64,000 bases of DNA, from the NCBI GenBank assembly GCA_047602745.1, contig JBLKOJ010000001.1, positions 7,585 to 71,584 on the forward strand, given 5' to 3'. Below, piece by piece: positions 18,655-50,438 of this stretch. The notes below the pieces were generated by a model. That model was not told where the DNA came from, did not search any database, and saw only the letters and a program-made list of their open reading frames with translations. Positions within the stretch are counted from its first letter, which is position 1. The number at the start of each line of letters is the position of its first letter. Source of the DNA: Candidatus Woesearchaeota archaeon. GTDB taxonomy: Archaea; Nanobdellota; Nanobdellia; Woesearchaeales; UBA583. Made by a program: the position numbers and the translations under genes.

Positions 18655-21135
18655 TTAGAAAAATTTGTTCAAACTTGTTTGTTTTTTAGACTGTACAATT
18701 TCATCAAAATTCATCTCTAAAGCGTCCAAGATTTCATCACTTACTCCTTTGAGCTGTTTTTCTATATAATGTTCATAATCATATGAATGTATTTGTGAAT
18801 TAAATAATGAAATATGTTTAGGTCCTTGAAGTGTCATTACATACTCAACTACTCTTCCATTAAATTCTTTAAGCTCACGTGCTGCTTTAACATGAGGAGG
18901 TGTAGTTTTCGTATACTCTTCAAGCGGTTTTGTAATTTTCTTACTATACACAAGTTTATCATCATACGCTTTCTCTTTTAATTTTAAAATCTCTGTATGA
19001 ATAAACTCAGAAATCTTTTTGTTATCAGCTCCATTAAAAATTAATTCCACTAATTCTTTTTGAAAGTCTTTTGCAAGTTGAGTCCAATCTCCTCGCACAT
19101 ATTCCATTCCCGTAAATTGTAAGTCTTTTTGTTCATCTCTTCCCACATATCGTTTCTTACTTGCAATAAAAAATTTATCAAACACTTTTTCAGCTTCGAT
19201 AGTTAAAAAACTCTCAACACCAAATGTTTCTTGTACCCACTCTTTAAAGTACACATTAATTGAACTCTCAACTTCTTGCATCACTTTTTTTTTATCTTCT
19301 AAACTTTTAACATTTTTTGAAGAAAATAAATTTGAACACTCAACAAATACCGAATCTGTATCTCCATAAATTACATGTAAGTTTTCCTTATCCTCTAAAA
19401 ATTCTTTTACCTTTAACAAACATTCTCTTCCAAAAGCAGTAATTGACTCCGCTAAATGTTTATTGTAGTATCGGGATTTAGGAGAAGCCATAGCACCATA
19501 AAATGAATTCATCGTAATTTTCAAAGCATGAGATTTAACACTCTCTTTTTTTCTCTTAGCTTCTTTTCTCAAATTAAATAATTCTCTAAGTATTTTTGGT
19601 AATATCCCCGTTTCTTTTTCATATACAGCACCATTTGATGAAATAATATATTTATGTGTGTCTTTATCTTTAACTAGAACAGATGTATTCGAATCAGTGG
19701 AAGAGAGTTCATAATTATATTTAAACGGATCTATATTAAATGTAATCATTAAAGAAGGATATAATGACGCAAAATCTAACACTACAATATCCTCATAAAA
19801 TCCTTGTTTGGGTTCAATAACATATGCTCCTTCAATAGGACTAGTTCCTTGAGTTGGATAATGCGTAATTGCAACTTTGCGTTGTTTGTGTAATTCTTTT
19901 AAATACATTTGATCTAACACAGCAATTGGAGATTGTAGTCTCTCAAAGAGTGTTTGTGTAATCAATGAACGCTCAAACATTAAATCCATCAACTTTATTG
20001 ATGAGATAATGTCTAAGACTAATATAGAGTCTTTATAGTTATACCAAATAAGTTTAACAGGGTTATGAATCCAATTATATTCAATAGTTTTAATTTTCTC
20101 AGATATACTAAAATCACTCTCATCACTTTCTTCTAAATCCACTTTATCATCTCCTAGCACTTCTTTTGCAACTGAGCTAAGTTTAAAACTTGAATATGTA
20201 ATATAATTTGTTTTTAATAATTGAATTCCATCAAGTACAATAATTCCTGGGAAATATAGTTGATCTTTTCCAAAGAACTCTGAAGTAACTCTCATTTTAC
20301 TCTCTCCTTGAAGAGATGAAAGTTCAAACTCTATATTATGCTCTTTAAACTTACCTTTAAGAACATTAAAATCAAAATTAATCACATTCCATCCAATAAT
20401 AAACTGAGGTTGAAATTCTTTTACCCTTCTTTGAAGCTCTAAAAGTAATTCTTTTTCATTTTCACAAACTACTACTCTAAAATTATCTTTAAACGGTCTA
20501 AATTCAAAATCATTCTTATTATGTAAATAATATAAATCATTAAACTCAAATTCCGTAATTAATAAATTTTTATCATTAATATCAGATTTAATATTTGAAA
20601 ATAATTTATCATATGTCTTAGAGTTCATCTCACTTTTGTTTAACAAAACCACATTCTTAAATTTTTTAGATAGAGAACTTAATGATATTAAATTAACTCG
20701 TTGTTTATCTACTTCTCCAATAGTTTCAATATCTAAACTAATAACTCTACATTTACTCACATCAAGAGAACTCTCAATGTTTTCATTAGACTCAATCAAA
20801 TAGTAATCAATTTCAGAGATATCAAACTCAAATGTTTGAAGAGAATATAATTTTATGAGCTCATACAACTGCTCTTTTGCCTCAATTGAAAGAGGAGTTA
20901 TTTTAAGTATTTCTTCTTTAAATAATGAAGTATATGTTTGTTTATAATTAATTGAAAATAGCTTTGAAATATCTTGATTTTCATATAATGAATTAAAGTC
21001 TTCAAGTTTTAGAAAAATAGGTTTAAAAAATACACAAGTTTGAGTTTGAGTAATAAAATTTGAATCAATATAATATCTTGTAAGTTGGTGAGATTCTTTA
21101 TTAAAATCAATGTGAAAAAGAAATGGTTTATTCAT
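18655..21135 (-). CDS. polB: Family B DNA polymerase
   Basis: Motif A DFASLYPSLMITFNI, motif C YGDTDS, KKRY motif and exonuclease-region motifs. 826 aa. Confidence 0.9.
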   Translation of the reverse strand: MNKPFLFHIDFNKESHQLTRYYIDSNFITQTQTCVFFKPIFLKLEDFNSLYENQDISKLFSINYKQTYTSLFKEEILKITPLSIEAKEQLYELIKLYSLQTFEFDISEIDYYLIESNENIESSLDVSKCRVISLDIETIGEVDKQRVNLISLSSLSKKFKNVVLLNKSEMNSKTYDKLFSNIKSDINDKNLLITEFEFNDLYYLHNKNDFEFRPFKDNFRVVVCENEKELLLELQRRVKEFQPQFIIGWNVINFDFNVLKGKFKEHNIEFELSSLQGESKMRVTSEFFGKDQLYFPGIIVLDGIQLLKTNYITYSSFKLSSVAKEVLGDDKVDLEESDESDFSISEKIKTIEYNWIHNPVKLIWYNYKDSILVLDIISSIKLMDLMFERSLITQTLFERLQSPIAVLDQMYLKELHKQRKVAITHYPTQGTSPIEGAYVIEPKQGFYEDIVVLDFASLYPSLMITFNIDPFKYNYELSSTDSNTSVLVKDKDTHKYIISSNGAVYEKETGILPKILRELFNLRKEAKRKKESVKSHALKITMNSFYGAMASPKSRYYNKHLAESITAFGRECLLKVKEFLEDKENLHVIYGDTDSVFVECSNLFSSKNVKSLEDKKKVMQEVESSINVYFKEWVQETFGVESFLTIEAEKVFDKFFIASKKRYVGRDEQKDLQFTGMEYVRGDWTQLAKDFQKELVELIFNGADNKKISEFIHTEILKLKEKAYDDKLVYSKKITKPLEEYTKTTPPHVKAARELKEFNGRVVEYVMTLQGPKHISLFNSQIHSYDYEHYIEKQLKGVSDEILDALEMNFDEIVQSKKQTSLNKFF

Positions 21136-21734
21136 ACAACAATCAATAACAATAATATAATATTTATATACTTACGTATTACAAGAAATTTTTTGAATTC
21201 ATTACATAAAATATAGTCAATATTCGTTGTAAAGTTCTTCAAATAATCATTGAAATACATTAGAAAATACGAGAAAAAATGTGATAAAAAAATCTACTTA
21301 ATTAAAAAATGGTTTTATCATCCAACATTCATATTCTTCAATTTTAAAGAATAATTTCAAATTAAAAATTAAATTTATAGTTTAAAATAAATAAAAATAT
21401 TAATTTAAATAATAATTAAATTTAAATTTAAAAATTATTTTTTAAAATAAATAGAAATAAATAAAAACATTTTAAAAAAATATATCTATTATTTAATATT
21501 AATAAAATAAAATAAATCAGTATAAATAAATATTTTTAAATAAATACAAATATATATATTAATTTAATTTTTACTAATTATTTGAAAAATCAAAAATTAA
21601 TACTATATAATTAAAAGTATTCTAAAATAAAATTATCAAAAATCAAGGAGAAAAAAAAGAAAAAAAATTCTAAAATCAATCATACTTTTTAATAAAAAAT
21701 ATATTTATAAACACTATATTAATGTACAATATAA
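21136..21734. promoter_or_regulatory. Extremely AT-rich, low-complexity divergent intergenic region (AAATAAATA-type repeats) between polB and the DUF1704 gene
   Basis: About 600 bp; over 90% A+T across 21340-21720 with short AT tandem repeats. Confidence 0.3.
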
Positions 21735-22865
21735 ATGATAATTTCACAAATTACAGAAGAAAAATATTTACAAGAATGTAGAGAAATTGAAGAAAAATTT
21801 AAAGAAATTATCTCACGAGTGAATTTATCTTATCCTAAACCACTTAATTCTAAAGAAGAGCGTAAAAAATTCTTCAAAAAGCTTAAAGAAGGTAAAGTGT
21901 ATAACCCACAGTTCAAATATGAATTTAAACATGTTCCTGAAAAAGTAATTTTAGAATTGAAAGAATTTAAAGAAAAAATTCCTCTTAAAAATGATTATTA
22001 TGCCTTTAAACGACTCTTAAAACAAAAAGTACAAGAAGATATTTTACTACTTGAGTGCTATAAAACATGGGGGTCTCCTCTTTCAAGTCATTTTAATAAG
22101 CAATTATTTCAAACACCCTCACAACTTCTGCTTATTAAAGCAAAACTTTATTGTAGAAACTTCAAAAGAGAAAAAGTAAGATTTAAACGAATTGATAATA
22201 AAAAACTTGGAAAAGAACTTCAAAGAGAAGTTAAACGTCTAACAGGAGATAAACTCAAAGTTGTTCACAAAAAACTAGCAAATAAAATGAATATTATGGC
22301 TCGTCTTAAAACTGTTGAGATTAATCCCAGTGAGAGCTTTACAAGTTTAGACTTAAAACGGCTTAAAATTCATGAAATTGGAGTTCATTATATGAGATAT
22401 TACAATGCTAAACAACTTGCTCCTTTAGAACTCTTTCAAAGAGGTACTGATCATTATATTGCAACAGAAGAAGGTCTTGCAGTATATAGTGAAGAAAGGG
22501 CCAGAGTTCTCTCAAAAGCTCAAATGTATATTTATGCCGGAAGAGTTCTTGCAACCTATTATTCACAAAAAATGGACTTTTACACTCTTTATCATTACCT
22601 TAGAAAATTTAATTTTAAAGAGAATGATGCATTCTCACTTGCACTTAGAGCTAAAAGAAATATCTGTGATACTTCTCTAGAAGGGGGATACTCTAAAGAT
22701 TATATATATTTCAAAGGATATTATGATGTAAAAGCATTTGCAAAAAAACATAATATTAAACATCTCTTCTTTGGAAAATTCAAAATTGAAGATTATAAAT
22801 ATATAAAACCTTATATCCTTAAAGTTGAAGAACAAATTAAAACTATCTTTGATGAGGAATATTAA
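21735..22865 (+). CDS. DUF1704-family (QEGLA-motif, MATCAP-like) putative metallocarboxypeptidase
   Basis: HEIGVH (HExxH) motif with EEGLAVY downstream (the QEGLA-like motif of DUF1704). About 375 aa. Confidence 0.5.
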   Translation: MIISQITEEKYLQECREIEEKFKEIISRVNLSYPKPLNSKEERKKFFKKLKEGKVYNPQFKYEFKHVPEKVILELKEFKEKIPLKNDYYAFKRLLKQKVQEDILLLECYKTWGSPLSSHFNKQLFQTPSQLLLIKAKLYCRNFKREKVRFKRIDNKKLGKELQREVKRLTGDKLKVVHKKLANKMNIMARLKTVEINPSESFTSLDLKRLKIHEIGVHYMRYYNAKQLAPLELFQRGTDHYIATEEGLAVYSEERARVLSKAQMYIYAGRVLATYYSQKMDFYTLYHYLRKFNFKENDAFSLALRAKRNICDTSLEGGYSKDYIYFKGYYDVKAFAKKHNIKHLFFGKFKIEDYKYIKPYILKVEEQIKTIFDEEY

Positions 22866-34092: not shown

Positions 34093-35562
34093 TTATCTTC
34101 TATCTTGAGTGTTTGAAACAATTCCACATTCTCTATAAAAATCTCCTTGAGGCATAATTTCAACATACTGCTCAAAATTAAAATTACTAACAATAGGTGA
34201 ATTTGAAACTTCAAAGGTTAATAGTTCGGTAAATAACTGTTGAATTTTCTCTTGAGAAGTTTGTTTTCGTAATTGGTCCATCTCTTCTTCTTGTCTTGAT
34301 TCAAATCTATTAAATGTATGAACATTTTGTAGGGCTTCTAATGTTTCTTCACTTTGCTTAGTCAATTCAACATCATTTATATTTGAATATGAATTTATGA
34401 AACTCATCGCACTTTCAATTGAAGGGTTATCTATAATATTTTCCATTTCTTGAAACTGTGCTTGTTGTCTACTTGTTGGTTCAATTTCTAATCCAGGATA
34501 ATAAAAAACTGCTCTCATTTCTTCAAGTATACTTTGAATCTCTCTTTGATCCATATGATCAAAAACCATATTTGAGACTCCGTATATTGAATAAAATAAT
34601 ATTGAACAACCCGCTATAGTTCCAACTACTGAAGCAGTTCCTAAAACACATGCTCCAGCCCCTTTTGCAAGAGAAAACACACCTCTTCCTGCTGCATAAA
34701 TTCCTCTTCTAACAGTCCTACTTACAACTGCTGCAGCTCCAACTCCAGCAGCTACATTTAAGGCACTTGGCTGAATTGCTTGGTATCTATATACTACATA
34801 ATTTTTCTCAGTTACTCTAAACTCACGAGTATACAAGGAGTTGAAATAATCAAAAATAGGAGTAATTTCATTTTTAATTTGGGTATCTAGAGAAGAGGAG
34901 TATATTCTATTTTCTAATTCTAGTCTCTGATTTTCTCCACCCCTTACATCTACATAAAATAAATTGGATAATTCTCTTGCATTTTCTCTTTCATCATTTC
35001 TTTCTCTAGGAATTTCATCTTCCATAAATGAACCTAGATTTTTATATCTAAATGACTCTCTATTACTTGAATCTACATTTTCAAATTCAATTTCTGCACA
35101 TACAAAACAATATGAACCTTCTCTTTGCGAGTAATCTAAAAATCGTAATTCTCCTGAACCATATCTTCTATTACATCTTAATGCAGCATCAGACAATCTA
35201 GAAAATACATATTCTTCGTCAGTATGTTCAAATATCAAAAATTCAGTCCTACAATATTGTGGAAGTCGTCCAAAGAATGTTTGTTCAGCTACTGCTAATT
35301 GTTCAATCGTTGTTCCTGAGCGTGCTATAACTGAAGCAGAAGCTTCTAGATATATTCGACACGCAGCATCTTGAGAAGCAGTCACTAATTGTTCTCCTGT
35401 AGAACCTATTACATTTATCATAAGGACCAAGATTAAAATTGATATTAAAAATGAAGCTAATACGACTAAAGACATCGTTTGAGATTTTTTATTTTGTTGA
35501 TGAATTTTATCTATATGAGAACTTGTTTTATGAATTTGTATATTTTTAATTAGTTTTATCAT
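34093..35562 (-). CDS. Membrane-anchored hypothetical protein (489 aa) with a Gly/Ala-rich glycine-zipper-like hydrophobic region
   Basis: N-terminal TM (VVLASFLISILILVLMINVIG). Central ALNVAAGVGAAAVVS...GIYAAGRGVFSLAKGAGACVLGTASVVGTIAGCSILFY segment. Tightly coupled (6-nt gap) to the upstream 813-aa gene. Confidence 0.5.
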   Translation of the reverse strand: MIKLIKNIQIHKTSSHIDKIHQQNKKSQTMSLVVLASFLISILILVLMINVIGSTGEQLVTASQDAACRIYLEASASVIARSGTTIEQLAVAEQTFFGRLPQYCRTEFLIFEHTDEEYVFSRLSDAALRCNRRYGSGELRFLDYSQREGSYCFVCAEIEFENVDSSNRESFRYKNLGSFMEDEIPRERNDERENARELSNLFYVDVRGGENQRLELENRIYSSSLDTQIKNEITPIFDYFNSLYTREFRVTEKNYVVYRYQAIQPSALNVAAGVGAAAVVSRTVRRGIYAAGRGVFSLAKGAGACVLGTASVVGTIAGCSILFYSIYGVSNMVFDHMDQREIQSILEEMRAVFYYPGLEIEPTSRQQAQFQEMENIIDNPSIESAMSFINSYSNINDVELTKQSEETLEALQNVHTFNRFESRQEEEMDQLRKQTSQEKIQQLFTELLTFEVSNSPIVSNFNFEQYVEIMPQGDFYRECGIVSNTQDRR

Positions 35563-35568
35563 TGTTTA

Positions 35569-38010
35569 TTACCTCACATGTTCATCAATATTTGAATTTT
35601 CTAACAATATATCAAACTCATCATAAGAGAGTTCGATTGGAATTGTCTCTATTTGAATATTTCCTTGAGTATCCATTTTAGGAAAAATAAATTCTTTTCT
35701 AAGACTTAAGTCATTCTCATCTATTTCTCTTTCTATGTATTGTGTATTTATAGTAAGCAATGCAGGGGAATAAATAGTATTTCCATTTTCTAATTCTTTT
35801 TTTTCAAAAATAAGTCTATTTGTAGTTTTAGTTCTCAAATAAAATATAGTTTGATAATTTCCACTTATCTCACTTTGATGTGGAACTAATACAACATCAA
35901 AATTTTTAATTTCTTCTCTTACTTTTGAAGTTCTTAACTCTTGTGAATCATATATTGAGTATAGTAATTGTTCAAAAAAGAGTTCATATTCTATATTAAT
36001 ATTTTCATTTGGAAAATTAAAATTGACAACGTTTCTAGATCTACTTGGGTTTAATATATCATATGAAATTGCTGTATTAAGATCTACGATACTAAACTCT
36101 AAATGAGTTAATTTAATATCTGAATTTGGATATATTTCACCATTAATTCTCTCTATTTGAGGGGTCATAAACATTGTATTTAAAATGTAGTCTTGTGAAT
36201 TAATTTCAATTTGAGGATTAAATTTTCCAGGATTATTAAACTCATCAATTAAAGTAAAATATGAAAAAAATGAAGGTTGTAAAACATTACTTGTTCTTCT
36301 ATTACTTGCTAACACTTTAGGTGTAAGATATACTTCAAAGTTTGGGTGTAATATATTATCAAATAAATACTGATGAATTTCTAATTCTATTAAATTTAAA
36401 TGTTCACATCTTCTATTTCTAAAAATAATATAAGGGCAATTTGCTTGAACTTTGTTTAGTTCATTAAAAGGGAGAATTCTATCTCCAAGTCTAAATTCTA
36501 AACTCCCAAGACTATTTCGATGAAGTAAAAAATCATGCTCATCTTTAACTACATAAAACCCTCTATGTTGGGTGTCCTGAGTATGAATATAAAAAGCTAA
36601 TTGTTGTCGTCTTTGCTGCTGAGAATTTTGAGTGTTAAATTCAATAATATAATTACATAGAGAATTCTCATCAATAGTAATTTGATCTCTAGAAATACTA
36701 CACTCCTGAGTAGGCGGTAAATTTGGTCGCTCATAGAAAAAGTTTTCTTCTGTATTTGCATTTACGTATTGAACTATCGTTTCATCAGGAACTCTTTGAA
36801 AAAAATCAAAAAAATTAAACTGGTTATTTGTAATAAATCTATCCTCTTCTTCTAAGTCTTTAATTTCAATCTCTAAAGATGCTTTTTCAGGAGGAAACAT
36901 ATTTGAAAAAAATTCACCACAAAATGAGATAAATGATTCTTTAATTTCTTCTCTTCTCTCATTTAATCCTAAAGAAAATATATATGAAGTTTGAGAATCT
37001 TGTCTAAGTTCTTGGCAAAAATTTCTCTCACCTAAATATTCACTTCCACATTGATACCCCGAATTCCAATAAATATTACTTCTAATTCTCATATCTTCTC
37101 TAGAATCACCTTCAAATTCAACAAATGCAGTACACATTATTCCTTTTGTATTAAGAGGAGAGTTGGGATTATCTGGACTTAATTGATCAGTAAAAGATGC
37201 AATATTACATGTATTTAATATACTCAATTCATCAGCATTTGTAATTAATGGACCAAAATAATTTCCTTGATATGATACAAATCCAAAAGAGTATAAATTT
37301 CTATCCCATGTATTTGTTGGAACATCCCTTCCTAATCTCTCGTTTATACTATTTAATAAATTCTCATGAAACCTACTTCCTGGTTTTAATACAAAATCAT
37401 TTCCTTCTCTTACTAAATATGAAATATGATATCCTGATTTAGAATCTCCAAAAAATACATTTGAAGATCTTATGAGTAATGAGGATTCGTATATCCCACT
37501 TGGAATTAAAAAAATAATATTTACATCATCATCTTGCGAAATCGAATTATCTATAGTAAAAGAACGCATATCTATAGAATTCGCAAATAAACGATTATTA
37601 AACGAATTAAAATCTGAATCTAACTCTCTTGCAACTAATCTTTGATAATCTTCATACGTTATTAATCCTGCATATTCTGAAGTGATTACTATTACATAAG
37701 AATCCCTATTTGATTCCATGATTTGAGGATTTGCTAAATAAGATAACTTTAATTCTTCCATGCATTGTATACTTGAACTCTCAACTCGTTCATCCATATA
37801 ATCAACAAAATCCACAATACTATAAACAACATCCATTGCAACATCTCGATTATAATCTTCAACTTGAAATATATTATAAATTGGTAAAATAACTAAAAGT
37901 AAAAATGCAATACCAATGAGCATTTGAAGAAGAATAAAATTTGGAATGTCTGTTACTTGAGACTTTTTATATTTGCAATAAGTATCAAAATATTCTTTAA
38001 AAGATAACAT
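35569..38010 (-). CDS. Large membrane-anchored Cys-rich hypothetical protein (813 aa), likely surface-exposed
   Basis: Single N-terminal TM (FILLQMLIGIAFLLLVILPIY). Large N/S/Y/C-containing ectodomain. No catalytic motifs recognised. Confidence 0.5.
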   Translation of the reverse strand: MLSFKEYFDTYCKYKKSQVTDIPNFILLQMLIGIAFLLLVILPIYNIFQVEDYNRDVAMDVVYSIVDFVDYMDERVESSSIQCMEELKLSYLANPQIMESNRDSYVIVITSEYAGLITYEDYQRLVARELDSDFNSFNNRLFANSIDMRSFTIDNSISQDDDVNIIFLIPSGIYESSLLIRSSNVFFGDSKSGYHISYLVREGNDFVLKPGSRFHENLLNSINERLGRDVPTNTWDRNLYSFGFVSYQGNYFGPLITNADELSILNTCNIASFTDQLSPDNPNSPLNTKGIMCTAFVEFEGDSREDMRIRSNIYWNSGYQCGSEYLGERNFCQELRQDSQTSYIFSLGLNERREEIKESFISFCGEFFSNMFPPEKASLEIEIKDLEEEDRFITNNQFNFFDFFQRVPDETIVQYVNANTEENFFYERPNLPPTQECSISRDQITIDENSLCNYIIEFNTQNSQQQRRQQLAFYIHTQDTQHRGFYVVKDEHDFLLHRNSLGSLEFRLGDRILPFNELNKVQANCPYIIFRNRRCEHLNLIELEIHQYLFDNILHPNFEVYLTPKVLASNRRTSNVLQPSFFSYFTLIDEFNNPGKFNPQIEINSQDYILNTMFMTPQIERINGEIYPNSDIKLTHLEFSIVDLNTAISYDILNPSRSRNVVNFNFPNENINIEYELFFEQLLYSIYDSQELRTSKVREEIKNFDVVLVPHQSEISGNYQTIFYLRTKTTNRLIFEKKELENGNTIYSPALLTINTQYIEREIDENDLSLRKEFIFPKMDTQGNIQIETIPIELSYDEFDILLENSNIDEHVR

Positions 38011-38160
38011 ATATAATACTAATTATCAGTTTGTAATCTTTAAATATATTATCTGTCATTACGTTTAGGATACATCATAGATAGTGTGAGTTTACCATGG
38101 CTTTAACAATTTAATTTACAATAATTCAATTTTGTAATAATTTAATTCTAGTACTGAGTC

Positions 38161-38182
38161 CTTGATTTCTACTGGAAACTGA
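38161..38182. repeat. Left arm of an imperfect inverted repeat (CTTGATTTCTACTGGAAACTGA), ORB-like
   Basis: Reverse complement of 40095..40116 is CTTAATTTCTACTGGAAATGAC (18/22 match; core ATTTCTACTGGAAA identical). Confidence 0.6.
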
Positions 38183-38338
38183 TTTGATGAGAATAGACTA
38201 AATAATTAGAGTTTGAATATACAGTATTAATTTTTGAATGTCTAATTTTAGATTTTGAATACATAAAATTATAATTTAAATATCAAATATATGATACTAG
38301 ATTTTAAGTGAGTAAAGTTTAAATTTGAAGATAAAAAG

Positions 38339-38983
38339 CTATAGTTTAAATAAATAATCTTTAATAATATTAAAATGAAATGTTTGTTTTTCTTTATTTT
38401 CTTCATTAATAGCTGTAATATATTGTTTTTGTATAGATTTGATAGTATATTTAATTCCTTTTATTTGAACTATATCTTTGGGTTTTAAATTATATATTGC
38501 AGCAAGAAGAGAGTGTCTATATAAGTCCTTACCTTTTAGCTTATTTCTTCCCATGATTTTTTTAGAATGCGTAAATATGCAAAAAAAATGTTCATTGATG
38601 ACTCTTTTAAGCTTGTGAATATCATTAATGTTGGCTAAATAGATATCAAACCCATCCAGATTGTCTTCTATTTTATTAATTAATAATTTAACATTTCTTA
38701 AAATATATTTAAGTTTAAAGTATGCTAAATCATACTCTGATATTAATATTTCATTATATTTTATATCTTTGTTAGAATAAATTGTTTGAGTTGCTTTATT
38801 TTCATATAATAAATACGTCTGTTCTATCTCATTTAACTTTTTATTGATATCTTCTTTATTATAAAAATATAATCTAAATTGAACTCTGCATTCATAATAG
38901 TCATCATGCATTTTTTTACTAATTGGAGACATTTTCTGCTCCATTTCTAATTCCACTTGAAATGAATCTTTTATAATAACCAT
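38339..38983 (-). CDS. Hypothetical protein (214 aa) inside the inverted-repeat-bounded segment
   Basis: The only long ORF between the inverted repeats. No Walker motif or other recognised motif. Confidence 0.4.
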   Translation of the reverse strand: MVIIKDSFQVELEMEQKMSPISKKMHDDYYECRVQFRLYFYNKEDINKKLNEIEQTYLLYENKATQTIYSNKDIKYNEILISEYDLAYFKLKYILRNVKLLINKIEDNLDGFDIYLANINDIHKLKRVINEHFFCIFTHSKKIMGRNKLKGKDLYRHSLLAAIYNLKPKDIVQIKGIKYTIKSIQKQYITAINEENKEKQTFHFNIIKDYLFKL

Positions 38984-39284
38984 ATTTATATTTGTACCTT
39001 ATAATTTAAATTATTATTTATTATTTATAAATGATACTACTATTAATAACATTAATTTTTATCTATTAAATTTTTTATAGAGACTATATAAAGCGATATT
39101 ATAAATATGTCATAAGTAATCGTGAAAGAAATTTTACAAATAATATAATAAAATTATTAACATTAAAAAGAACTATAAAAATTTACAACTAATCATTAAT
39201 AATATTTTTATTAATATATTTAACTAATATTAATTTTTAAATTTTAAAGATAAAGTTAAAATCAAGTATTGATACTAACAACTT

Positions 39285-39313
39285 AAATCTAAATCTAAAT
39301 CTAAATCTAATCT
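39285..39313. repeat. Hexanucleotide microsatellite (AAATCT)x4 plus a partial unit
   Basis: Direct tandem repeat read from the sequence. Confidence 0.8.
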
Positions 39314-39399
39314 CAAAATTAAAAAATACTATTAAAAATACTATTGAAAATTTATAACTTAGAAATTTATCATATATATTTTAATATTTTATTTTGTGT

Positions 39400-39720
39400 T
39401 GTTTAATCTATTGTTTATTTAATTTTTTTTGCATTTATTTCAAATTTACTTTTATTTATTATTTTATCATATTTATTTTTATTTAAGTTCTATTTATATA
39501 TTGTATTATATTTGTTTCAATTTTTATTTATATTATACCAATATTTACATTTGAATTCGTACTTCTCTACTTTAAAGTCTATTTTTATTCTCACTTTATT
39601 TTTATATTTTTCTTATCTTTACTTTACTTCTTCCCTTATTATTTTTTAATCATTTATTATTTTTATATTACTTTACACCACATTTACATTCACATATTTA
39701 TTATTTATACTAAAAATAGT
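39400..39720. other. G-depleted, T/C-rich strand-asymmetric tract (about 2% G on the plus strand) with no ORF
   Basis: Manual base inspection finds only about 7 G in 300 nt, against about 10% C and 55% T. Confidence 0.5.
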
Positions 39721-39815
39721 GTTTTAATAATGTATTTATTTCTTTTGCAGATACATATTTGTTTAAATTATATCTAAATTAGTATATACAATTATAAGAC
39801 TATATTTAAGTTTAT

Positions 39816-40055
39816 TTAGACAAAATTTAGACAAGACTTAGAATTAAATCTCATTAATTTAAATTATTAAAATTTTAAAAATTCAACTTTAAAGTCTGAA
39901 TTCCCTACTTAAACTAAGGTTTCAAACAAATTTTAGTTGTTTAATATTACTTGTTTTTAGTTATTTCTAATTGTATATTTTATCATTTTAGACAAGTTTT
40001 AGACAATTATTAAACGAGTTTATTTTTATTTTAGACAAGTTTTAGACAATTATTA
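39816..40055. repeat. Iteron-like direct repeats, six copies of TTAGACAA, including two perfect 27-bp repeats (TTTTAGACAAGTTTTAGACAATTATTA at 39986..40012 and 40029..40055)
   Basis: Exact repeat coordinates read from the sequence. Copies at 39816, 39827, 39988, 39999, 40031 and 40042. Confidence 0.75.
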
Positions 40056-40094
40056 GAATTTTTCATTAAAATAAAACCATAAATTTTGTTTTTT

Positions 40095-40116
40095 GTCATT
40101 TCCAGTAGAAATTAAG
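40095..40116. repeat. Right arm of the inverted repeat (GTCATTTCCAGTAGAAATTAAG)
   Basis: Pairs with 38161..38182. The core TTCCAGTAGAAAT resembles the archaeal mini-ORB core (TTCCAGTGGAAAC) as I remember it. Confidence 0.6.
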
Positions 40117-40511
40117 GTCTTAGTCTTTTGTAAAAAATTTAAGAATTATTATTAAAGATATTATTTTATGAATTTGGTATTAATAAAATTCAAATTGAAA
40201 ATACGTAAGTTTATAAATATACTAATCATATATACATTAATTAGTTATAAGACTCTTTACTTAAGTGTCATATTGATTTGTTTGTGATTGCTATACATAT
40301 CTTTATAGGTAGGTTTAGATGGAAAAATTAAATTTACATGTTAAAAATATTAAATATTACATAAAATTTCAATCAAGTAGTTTATAGTTATTAACTATAG
40401 ATATAAAATGAAATTTGTGTGAGGATTAAGTTTAATTTTTCTAAGTGTATAAATAAAAGTAAACAAATTAAGAATATTAGGTAAAGATTTTTAAGCTTTT
40501 TTTAGGGAAAA

Positions 40512-41138
40512 ATGAAAGAAGTTGAATTAAAAGTTAGAAATATTAACAAGCAAGACATCATTGATAAAATTACTGAAATTGGGGCGGTGAGAGTTTTTAG
40601 CGGGAAAGTTATTGATTTTAGATTTGATACCCCAGATAGAGATTTATCTAGGCAAGGAAAGGCGTTGAGAATTAGGCAAAAAGGCTCATATATATATTTA
40701 AATTTAAAAGGAAAAAAAAAATCTAAGGAGAGTATTATAGGAAGAGATGAAATCGGAGTTAAAATATCTAATTTTAAAACAATGCAGAGAATTTTACATG
40801 AATTAGGCTATATTAAAATTTTTGAACTTGTTAAATATAGAACACAATTTAGGTTTAAAGATATCACTTTTGATATTGATGAATATGCAGGATTAGACCC
40901 CATTTTAGAAATTGAGAGTAATTCATATGAAAAAGTTAGAGAGTATGTGGATTTATTAAACATTCAAGAGGAAGACATAGGAAGAGTATACATTAGAGAA
41001 ATATTGGAGGCTAAGAGAACAATTTCCACAAAAGAATTTTTAGATAGTAAGTATAAAAAAGATAAATATCGATATTCTCCCAAACATTCCAAAATTAAAC
41101 AAGATAAGGAGGAAGATGATTTAGATTGTGATGACTAA
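40512..41138 (+). CDS. CYTH-domain protein (CyaB/thiamine-triphosphatase-like)
   Basis: N-terminal EVELK (ExExK motif), about 200 aa with alternating charged beta-strand pattern and a C-terminal acidic tail. Confidence 0.6.
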   Translation: MKEVELKVRNINKQDIIDKITEIGAVRVFSGKVIDFRFDTPDRDLSRQGKALRIRQKGSYIYLNLKGKKKSKESIIGRDEIGVKISNFKTMQRILHELGYIKIFELVKYRTQFRFKDITFDIDEYAGLDPILEIESNSYEKVREYVDLLNIQEEDIGRVYIREILEAKRTISTKEFLDSKYKKDKYRYSPKHSKIKQDKEEDDLDCDD

Positions 41139-46736: not shown

Positions 46737-47183
46737 ATGGAAGAAATTTATTCAGATGTTAGATTATTACAAAGAGATTTGAACACGTTAGAACATATGA
46801 TTTATGTGTCTTGTAAATTTACAAGAACAACTGAAATGTTGTATAAAGTGATGGAACAAATGGTTTCCACATATGAAAATTTTTTTGGTATAGCATACCA
46901 AGTATTACTTAGAGAACACTCAGGATTTTCAGATGCTAGTAATAAAATTCAAATGCTTACTAGAGTATTAATTGAAAGAGGGGTTGTAGCGGATTTATCT
47001 GAATATTATTTACTTAAAAAATTGTTAATTAGTGATTTTGAAGCAATGGGAGAATATAGAAGAAATCTATCTATCATTGCATTTATCGATGGAGAGGAGT
47101 ATATAATTAATATTCCTAAACTTCTTGATTTTTATGAAAATTTGAAAACAGCAATTACATCACTTTCCCAAGAACAATATTAA
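46737..47183 (+). CDS. Hypothetical protein (148 aa)
   Basis: ORF only. Confidence 0.4.
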   Translation: MEEIYSDVRLLQRDLNTLEHMIYVSCKFTRTTEMLYKVMEQMVSTYENFFGIAYQVLLREHSGFSDASNKIQMLTRVLIERGVVADLSEYYLLKKLLISDFEAMGEYRRNLSIIAFIDGEEYIINIPKLLDFYENLKTAITSLSQEQY

Positions 47184-49785: not shown

Positions 49786-50109
49786 TTACTTTGTAATTTT
49801 TTCAAGTTCTTTAAGTAATTTTTTATGAAATTCTGGTGTAATTGAACTAATTTTTTTAATTATTTTTTCTTCTGAGATTGTAAATATTCTATGAGACTTC
49901 ACATAACTTTCATGAGGAAGAGGATTTAGAAGAGAGTTATTATTAATACTAATTGAATTGTGAGATTTTTTACTGGTAACTAACATGCAAATTTTATCAC
50001 CATGTAAGTTTGAATTAGAGATAATTAATGCGGGTCTTACCTTATTTGATGTTAAATCTGAGTATGGAAAAGGTATTAAAATAATATCTCTTTGATTATA
50101 CATATGCAT
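49786..50109 (-). CDS. MazF/PemK-family toxin (type II TA)
   Basis: RDIILIPFPYSDLTSNKVRPALIIS matches the MazF/PemK core (G.i..v.fp...g.e...RPavVvs). Overlaps the upstream small antitoxin-like ORF. Confidence 0.6.
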   Translation of the reverse strand: MHMYNQRDIILIPFPYSDLTSNKVRPALIISNSNLHGDKICMLVTSKKSHNSISINNNSLLNPLPHESYVKSHRIFTISEEKIIKKISSITPEFHKKLLKELEKITK

Positions 50110-50314
50110 TCCACCTTTCATCTTCTTCATTATCCCACTCTGAGTTGAGAATTTCTTCACTGAGTTGAGTTGTTATATGTGATTCTTGTAATGAATCTAG
50201 TTCTTCGATTCGTTTTTCTATTTGTTTTCTAACATACTCACTCCATTTTATTTCTGAGTATTTTTTCATCTTTTTATATGTAGAATTTTTAATTGAGAGA
50301 GTAATATTTGTCAT
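50096..50314 (-). CDS. Putative antitoxin partner of the MazF-like toxin (72 aa, acidic C-terminus)
   Basis: Position immediately upstream and overlapping the toxin. N-terminal TNITLSIKNSTYKKMKK resembles RHH/AbrB-type antitoxins. Confidence 0.4.
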   Translation of the reverse strand: MTNITLSIKNSTYKKMKKYSEIKWSEYVRKQIEKRIEELDSLQESHITTQLSEEILNSEWDNEEDERWNAYV

Positions 50315-50438
50315 AATTTTATAAGTGAATCCACTTATTTAAATTTTTGTATGATTTTTTAATAATAAGTTATCATTTTCATCTTATTATTTTCACAAAT
50401 ACGTAATATTTAAATATTTATACGTATTACAAGATATA

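Follow-up and report, generated by a model that had tools for sequence, protein, structure and literature searches.

Archaeal origins of chromosome replication (oriC) have been described as following an ORB(-)/DUE/ORB(+) pattern, with origin recognition boxes (ORBs) in inverted orientation on the two sides of a DNA-unwinding element (DUE) (bioRxiv 10.64898/2026.08.15.744077). In the Thermococcales, the oriC-cdc6-dp1 region bears two clusters of ORBs that flank the cdc6 gene, and this arrangement is kept across the order (PMC1904270). The main oriC of Hyperthermus butylicus has no neighbouring initiator gene (bioRxiv 10.64898/2026.08.15.744077), and at Sulfolobus oriC1 the ucm motif, a conserved non-ORB element lying in the origin, is bound by a separate protein, UBP, that is needed for firing, which shows that the firing of an archaeal origin can depend on non-ORB motifs and the proteins that bind them (PMC12141716). 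As for the Nanobdellota, a survey of 208 complete genomes took ORC1/Cdc6 as the place of the origin and rotated the sequences accordingly (bioRxiv 10.64898/2026.05.13.725050). Here we have analysed a stretch of 64,000 nt (the window, which throughout means this whole stretch) from a Candidatus Woesearchaeota archaeon, a member of the Woesearchaeota/Nanobdellota lineage of the DPANN, and within it a segment, at 38153-40124, in which two inverted arms enclose a small Nmd3-like gene. To our knowledge, there is no experimental study of DPANN replication origins.

Our results suggest that chromosome replication in this AT-rich archaeon (~27% GC) probably starts from this segment, as an origin of the Orc1/Cdc6-ORB type. 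The contig is chromosomal and has PolB, gyrA, gyrB, GatE, class I LysRS, ProRS, NAC and two tRNA genes on it. A preliminary description of this DNA had put forward three candidates, namely an archaeal oriC with inverted ORB-like elements flanking AT-rich DNA, an integrated replicon or viral fragment, and a non-autonomous mobile element with terminal inverted repeats. It is the first of them that we retain, because the homology of the arms to ORBs, the conservation of the locus at a syntenic position and the strand switch, with the skew minimum at the locus, together make an oriC likely. Its organization is likely new: the putative origin is unlinked from orc1/cdc6, is split around a conserved Nmd3-like gene and carries a conserved module of phased repeats.

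The inverted arms and the ORB family

The segment is bounded by an inverted repeat of 26 nt with 88% complementarity (38153-38178 / 40099-40124), longer than the 22 bp first reported, and the exact 14-mer core TTTCCAGTAGAAAT occurs in the 64 kb at these two arms only. The left box, ORB-L (38153..38180, minus strand, where it reads TTTCCAGTAGAAATCAAGGACTCAGT), lies 160 bp past the stop codon of the Nmd3-like gene, and the right box, ORB-R (40099..40124, plus strand, TTTCCAGTAGAAATTAAGGTCTTAGT), is the top-scoring match of the 64 kb in the matrix scan described below. The likeness of the core to the archaeal mini-ORB, pointed out in the preliminary description, is real, and it reaches past the mini-ORB core into the AAGG part. 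The arms resemble the archaeal ORB consensus CTTCCAGTGGAAACGAAAGGGGT (PMC4153887), both retain the TTCC and GAA cores, which do not vary among Pyrococcus ORBs (PMC1904270), and the window element TTTCCAGTAGAAATTAAGGTCT agrees at 16 of 20 positions, AAGG part included, with the 'common' archaeal ORB motif of Ori-Finder 2, TCCA[CG]T[TG]GAAA[TC][GA]AAGGGGT (PMC4164010). Alignment with three relatives gives the full element as TTTCCA-N3-GAAAT-N-AAGG-W-C-W-N-AG. In both arms the TTTCCA-N3-GAAAT half is turned toward the interior of the segment and the AAGG half toward the exterior. This is the ORB(-)/DUE/ORB(+) pattern, with ORB(-) at 38178 and ORB(+) at 40099 around DNA that includes a spacer of 10-20% GC, and with the caveat that the two boxes are 1.9 kb apart and have a gene between them.

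A strict ORB pattern was scanned over 185,579 reference genomes, one genome per species, and 17 loci were obtained, about half of which are single matches in bacterial genomes that we read as chance level. At four DPANN loci (L010, L018, L014 and L022) the motif is present as inverted pairs, 175-375 bp apart, around AT-rich DNA; these pairs lie directly upstream of orc1/cdc6, which is followed by the gene for the PolD small subunit, and the orc1/cdc6 products have the Cdc6 AAA+, lid and winged-helix domains (Pfam). At a fifth locus (L011) the motif lies directly upstream of an ORF in which direct reading shows an Orc1-like Walker A region. Since the DNA motif alone retrieved these orc1-linked loci, the scan is an independent test of the homology of the arms. 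A weight matrix built solely from the ORBs of the four loci with Pfam-confirmed orc1/cdc6 gave 22.5 bits for ORB-R and 20.6 bits for ORB-L, while the next match in the window scored 13.1 bits and the maximum over 20 shuffles was 16.4 bits, below both arms. Judged by these sequence comparisons, the two arms are genuine ORBs, and they are homologous to the ORBs upstream of orc1/cdc6 in other DPANN genomes.

Inside the spacer the matrix found no further strong ORB, at a threshold of at least 9 bits. A mini-ORB-like sequence, TTCCACTTGAAAT, is present at 38951..38963 (plus strand) within the 5' coding region of the Nmd3-like gene; it is without the AAGG part and scores below 9 bits on the ORB matrix. 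It is invariant in the window and in the three closest relatives (L005, L007 and L009) and absent from the most distant one (L035), and its status is uncertain because the codons of conserved residues constrain the sequence there. Two ORB-like boxes were also seen in a Heimdallarchaeota contig (BPTO01000095.1, L023, 566-1236), TTTCCAGTGGAAATGAAGGTC on the plus strand and TTTTTCTCGGAAACAAAGGGGT on the minus strand, convergent around a 161-aa ORF, and no orc1-sized ORF is found near them.

A 26-nt inverted repeat of this complementarity around 1.9 kb of AT-rich DNA is also what would be expected of a miniature inverted-repeat transposable element (MITE), a mobile element that is non-autonomous and has terminal inverted repeats. 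The preliminary description had pointed out that a generic element of this kind should show its inverted-repeat and iteron motifs at many loci. The arm core has two copies in 64 kb, and the reference scan gave one locus per genome. Moreover, conservation is highest in the arms, between which the sequence diverges freely, the position is fixed with respect to the Nmd3-like gene in all relatives, and the arms match orc1-adjacent ORBs. With one fixed, syntenic locus per genome, a mobile element is barely credible here and we have rejected it.

Conservation, strand asymmetry and the missing initiator gene

The locus was followed in five relatives, in which the identity of the Nmd3-like protein to that of the window is 88% (L005), 71% (L009), 69% (L007), 55% (L033) and 33% (L035). 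When the Nmd3-like gene is placed on the plus strand, the order is a CYTH gene (minus strand), ORB(-), the TAGACA repeats, the AT-rich spacer, the Nmd3-like gene and ORB(+), and this order holds in all five, with a tRNA-like sequence in the place of the CYTH gene in the most distant one (direct reading). ORB(+) is found 0-160 bp past the Nmd3-like stop codon, and 0-48 bp past it in the five relatives. Both ORBs and the repeats are therefore kept at the same locus from 88% down to 33% protein identity; the absence from close relatives that would have marked a pure mobile element was not seen, the segment being present at the syntenic site in every relative examined. In an alignment of four genomes (the window, L005, L007 and L009), 23 of the 28 columns of ORB-L and 20 of the 24 of ORB-R are invariant, and it is the central 3 nt of the box that vary (GTA, CTA, CTC, CAC, TAC) between invariant flanks. 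Directly downstream of ORB-L, close relatives also keep the genes of two large proteins of 813 aa (35569-38010) and 489 aa (34093-35562), which have no Pfam or NCBIfam family and, by inspection, a hydrophobic segment each near the N-terminus.

The skew and gene context was extended to 82 kb using overlapping contigs. Over this length the cumulative GC skew, whose calculation for the whole chromosome the preliminary description had proposed as a check, falls to its minimum at 40125, at the candidate origin, and then rises. The GC skew at third codon positions, taken on the plus strand for 76 ORFs, depends on the orientation of the gene (beta 0.187, t 6.8) and, independently of orientation, on the side of the locus at which the gene is found (beta 0.185, t 6.6), with the best change point between 38010 and 38339. 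About 71% of the coding length is co-oriented with forks leaving the locus, and genes diverge from the locus in L007, L005 and L034 as well. In bacterial and archaeal skews, an excess of G over C on the strand read away from a site is the polarity of an origin. This is the polarity seen here, so the site would be an origin and not a terminus. Both strand composition and gene orientation thus switch at the locus within the 82-kb context, and the skew speaks in favour of an origin at work over evolutionary time.

The window had been described as lacking orc1/cdc6, and so it proved. Pfam, applied to 50 of the 53 ORFs that reach 100 aa, detected no such gene, neither Orc1/Cdc6 nor DP1 was found in the full 82 kb (by tblastn, the queries being three Orc1 proteins and a DP1, and in the gene tables of flanking loci), and none of the related loci encodes either of them. 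A 148-aa ORF at 46737-47183 was considered as an Orc1 relative and discarded, its tblastn match to the L022 Orc1 being a 32-residue chance match without Pfam support. The orc1/cdc6 gene of the host lineage was searched for with the L010 Orc1, which gave 8000 matches, and 10 likely candidates fell outside the accession series of the three metagenome-assembled genomes (MAGs) that bear the locus.

Several of these results weigh against an oriC at this place. An initiator gene next to the origin is typical of archaeal oriCs, if not universal, and orc1/cdc6 is missing here for ~48 kb to the left and 32 kb to the right, whereas it adjoins this ORB type in all five other DPANN loci. The strong ORBs number two only, lack a G-string and stand 1.9 kb apart around a gene, versus 175-375 bp at the orc1-linked loci and 130 bp in the Sulfolobus oriC1 core. 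The optimum of the skew change point is broad, as a residual sum of squares of 987 at the best position compares with 1001 at 22.9 kb, and the skew context is limited to 82 kb.

The lack of orc1/cdc6 in these 82 kb and the compactness of the five DPANN origins that share this ORB type and are linked to orc1 speak at the same time for another reading, in which the ORBs are real Orc1/Cdc6 sites and the locus is not the active or main origin. It would then be a dormant or secondary origin, or serve in initiator titration or in the Orc1-dependent regulation of the Nmd3-like gene and its neighbours, and the main origin would lie beside orc1/cdc6 elsewhere. Haloarchaea are documented to have dormant origins as well as ORB clusters that act in regulation or titration (PMC4010727), and Orc1 paralogues can serve as transcription regulators (PMC9738581). 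On the other hand, the GC-skew minimum, the orientation-independent side effect at third codon positions and the divergence of genes all centre on this locus, and origins without an adjoining initiator gene are known, for example in Hyperthermus butylicus. In addition, in two genomes of the host lineage (L020 and L021) the strict ORB motif was found at the Nmd3-like locus only, an observation of little weight given incomplete MAGs and a strict pattern. We regard a secondary, dormant or regulatory Orc1 site as unlikely, and as the serious rival to the oriC that we favour.

The enclosed gene, the spacer and the phased repeats

The only gene enclosed by the ORB pair (38339..38983, minus strand) codes for a protein of 214 aa, first taken for the product of an orphan ORF. 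It matches the Pfam family NMD3 (E 7.5e-10), its top matches among PDB sequences are yeast Nmd3, and its AlphaFold model (pLDDT 84) has Nmd3 in all of its 13 best Foldseek matches (best E 2.4e-7). The NCBI name for the identical protein is 'NMD3-related', and there is no NCBIfam family for it. Homologues are rare, with 13 clusters among 5.8 billion proteins, and two metagenome scans with alignments of the family gave nothing that tblastn confirmed. The comparison with Rep and winged-helix initiators that had been suggested for this protein (made through Pfam, PDB sequences and Foldseek) led to Nmd3 instead, and the protein has no Rep, AAA+ or winged-helix initiator features, in agreement with the earlier remark that AAA+ motifs are lacking. 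The product of the 214-aa ORF is an Nmd3-fold protein, not a Rep.

This bears on a further possibility. The AT-rich DNA between the inverted repeats has clustered direct repeats close to a small gene, which might suggest that a plasmid or viral mini-replicon, equipped with iterons and an initiator of its own, has integrated here and is present whole or as a remnant. The sole gene next to the iterons has the Nmd3 fold in place of a Rep initiator, and the whole arrangement is syntenic, without patchy presence, in relatives down to 33% protein identity. By blastn the segment has no match in plasmid or phage collections, there is no Nmd3-like relative in 2.9 million viral contigs, and the ORB pattern matches a single viral contig, which is chance level. 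An integrated replicon or viral fragment is therefore highly unlikely and was rejected, on account of the fold, the synteny and the lack of matches in plasmid, phage and viral collections.

Between the Nmd3-like gene and the repeats lies an AT-rich spacer (38984..39986), likely the DNA-unwinding region, which has 10-20% GC in 100-nt windows. Its kilobase 39001-40000, with 14.3% GC, is the lowest in GC of the window, in line with the AT-rich and gene-poor character already noted, and there is no ORF of 50 aa or more in the spacer, the 214-aa ORF being the one inside the segment; Rfam gave no match in the region, even at E values up to 1. An A-rich half (39000-39360) precedes a T-rich, G-poor half (39380-39700), with the AT skew changing sign near 39360, and this polarity runs as it does between the ORBs of L010 and L018. 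Most of the spacer cannot be aligned among the four genomes. The microsatellite reported as (AAATCT)n was found as (TAAATC)4.5 at 39284-39310, and the spacer microsatellites differ by genome: that of the window is (TAAATC)n, that of L007 is (ATAAATC)n, and L005 has both (AATAAATC)n and (TTTAA)n. This suggests rapid slippage in a DNA that is constrained in composition only.

Of the 321 nt of the tract at 39380-39700, 60% are T and 11 nt are G. This tract is thus as depleted in G as had been stated, and it is not unique in this, since intergenic DNA near 21.3 kb is poorer in G. There, a second very AT-rich (~16% GC) and G-depleted divergent intergenic region (21136-21734), with 6 G in 320 nt near 21313, is flanked by PolB (18655-21135, minus strand) and by a gene for a MATCAP-like peptidase (21735-22865, plus strand), and the ORB matrix gave no match in it.

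Between the spacer and ORB-R, and within the end of the spacer, lie the repeats TTTAGACAA (the TAGACA repeats). All six copies announced in the preliminary description were found, as three pairs spaced by 11 bp (39815/39826, 39987/39998 and 40030/40041); the whole window has seven, versus 2.5 expected, and none of 100 shuffles reached seven. Two of the pairs form an iteron module (39985..40055, plus strand) made of two perfect units, each with two TTTAGACAA 11 bp apart, which are split by the invariant AGTTTATTTTTAT. The two perfect units had been correctly seen, and their length is 28 nt instead of 27 (39985-40012 and 40028-40055, with a spacing of 43 bp). Counted from the ORB, the repeats stand at +51, +62, +94 and +105 in the window and in L005, and at subsets of these positions in L009, L007 and L033. 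The distal pair (39815..39834, plus strand) has equivalents 222-277 bp from the ORB in L005, L007 and L009, and L035 has two arrays of five TAGACA with an 11-bp period, in opposite orientation. Between the iterons and ORB-R, a conserved element ACCATAAATTTT (40076..40087, plus strand; GCGATAAATTTT in relatives) keeps its distance to the ORB in L005, L007 and L009 as well as in the window, and direct reading shows it in L033 too. The repeats are thus phased on the helix as in iteron/Rep origins, and the iteron-like repeats of this locus accompany an Orc1-type origin, not a Rep-type replicon. A literature search returned nothing relevant on the TAGACA repeat or on Woesearchaeota origins.

Two promoter-like blocks are also conserved. 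The first one belongs to the Nmd3-like gene (39020..39051, minus strand), consists of a TATA-like TTTATAAAT followed by the conserved GATACTACTA...TAACA, and is kept in all six loci, L035 included in spite of its 33% protein identity. The ACTACT core of its second part (39030-39051) loosely recalls the TACTACTACTAC of WhiP-type origins and may be only a BRE or an operator. The second block, (A)CATTTATAAATAT plus ~90 nt (40205..40300, plus strand), lies outside ORB-R, ~290 nt upstream of the CYTH/cyaB gene (40512-41138). Its TATA-like part (40210-40221) is common to the window, L005, L009 and L007, and the stretch that follows is near-identical between the window and L005 over ~90-110 nt. This block, to which Rfam gave no match, could be a long 5' untranslated region or a small RNA, and may lie outside the origin proper.

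Since TATA-like blocks are kept on both sides, at 39020-39051 and 40210-40221, one could ask whether the region is just a divergent promoter for the Nmd3-like and CYTH genes, with the conserved blocks as operators of transcription factors and the likeness to ORBs as a coincidence. The 11-bp phased TAGACA triplets would not contradict this, because they have at least 120 matches in unrelated viral DNA and the triplet pattern alone is therefore not specific. However, the 26-nt motif was by itself enough to find five other genomes in which it immediately precedes orc1/cdc6, ORB-L sits downstream of the Nmd3-like gene, outside any promoter, and the switch in strand composition would be left unexplained. 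We give the promoter region only a slim chance compared with a replication origin.

Elsewhere in the window, a restriction-modification system of the DpnII type occupies 3556-7372, with an endonuclease (3556-4506), a D12 methyltransferase (4503-5336) and an N6/N4 DNA methylase (6542-7372), and the precomputed Pfam annotation of an identical contig (L001, 12906-13434) indicates a PemK-like toxin and RHH antitoxin pair at 49786-50350.

Proposed initiation and comparison with known origins

We propose that Orc1/Cdc6, encoded elsewhere in the genome, would bind as one monomer to each of the inverted ORBs, and that ATP-bound Orc1 would then load MCM. Opening of the duplex would take place in the spacer (10-20% GC) that separates the Nmd3-like gene from ORB-R, and replication would proceed bidirectionally from the locus. 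A second factor probably binds to the TAGACA repeats that adjoin ORB-R, along a single face of the helix, in a role that may be likened to that of ucm and UBP. More speculatively, opening may be aided by the transcription of the Nmd3-like and CYTH genes, which runs out of the spacer in both directions. A bolder version, which we consider doubtful, is that the origin has been uncoupled from orc1/cdc6 and is set jointly by Orc1 at the distant ORBs and by a factor that polymerises on the TAGACA repeats, with the Nmd3-fold protein as this factor or as a coupler to ribosome biogenesis. If true, it would represent a new pairing of replicator and initiator in archaea.

If the locus is the origin, as we favour, it suggests that the assumption of an origin at ORC1/Cdc6 fails in at least one lineage, and predictors based on adjacency to the initiator gene would rank it low. 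The module of ~130 bp formed by the ORB and the phased TAGACA repeats is deeply conserved and is therefore a concrete target in the search for accessory archaeal origin factors, and the constant enclosure of the Nmd3-like gene represents an unexplained tie between an origin and a protein of the ribosome-biogenesis type. The ORB matrix together with the skew signature could also serve as an anchor to orient and check assemblies of these genomes.

How does this locus relate to the known origins? Iteron/Rep plasmid origins share with it AT-rich DNA adjoined by direct repeats whose period is close to one turn of the helix, whereas the window has no Rep gene, its repeats accompany chromosomal Orc1-type ORBs, and no plasmid or viral relatives were found. 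With the ucm/UBP system the TAGACA repeats have in common that they are a non-ORB element inside an Orc1-type origin, and the analogy is functional only, since ucm is a single motif in the DUE and the window has phased arrays of 9-bp repeats with an 11-bp period and another sequence. Indeed, the Sulfolobus ucm motif TTATACAAAC was not found in the region, nor was its combination with the TACTACTACTAC inverted repeat that defines WhiP-type origins such as Sulfolobus oriC3, of which only the short ACTACT core is present, in the promoter block of the Nmd3-like gene.

The resemblance is closer to Sulfolobus oriC1 and Pyrococcus oriC, where the ORB has the same form, TCCA-N3-GAAA and then an AAGG element, and where an inverted ORB pair surrounds AT-rich DNA at a switch of strand skew. 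In contrast to them, the window locus lies away from orc1/cdc6, has two strong ORBs only, has 1.9 kb and a gene between them instead of ~130 bp, and shows AAGG(T/A)CTNAG in place of the G-string of Orc1-1/oriC1-type origins. The main oriC of Hyperthermus butylicus has the same ORB(-)/DUE/ORB(+) pattern without an adjoining initiator gene; it belongs to another phylum, and is not known to have an enclosed gene or iteron module.

The orc1/cdc6-dp1-linked DPANN origins (L010, L011, L014, L018 and L022) carry the same ORB subtype, TTTCCA-N3-GAAAT-N-AAGGTCT, with the AAGG half outward and an AT-rich spacer in which an A-rich half comes before a T-rich half. They differ in being compact, with 175-375 bp between the ORBs, and in lying directly upstream of orc1. 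In L010 and L018 one ORB has a GGGGG tail; the five loci have no Nmd3-like gene, as judged from gene positions, with no tblastn made against them, and no 11-bp TAGACA arrays, by direct reading. The nearest precedent for the split arrangement is found in the Thermococcales. The gene enclosed there is the initiator gene cdc6, whereas the one in the window codes for an Nmd3-fold protein without a known role in replication, and in both cases ORB elements stand on either side of a protein-coding gene over a few kb.

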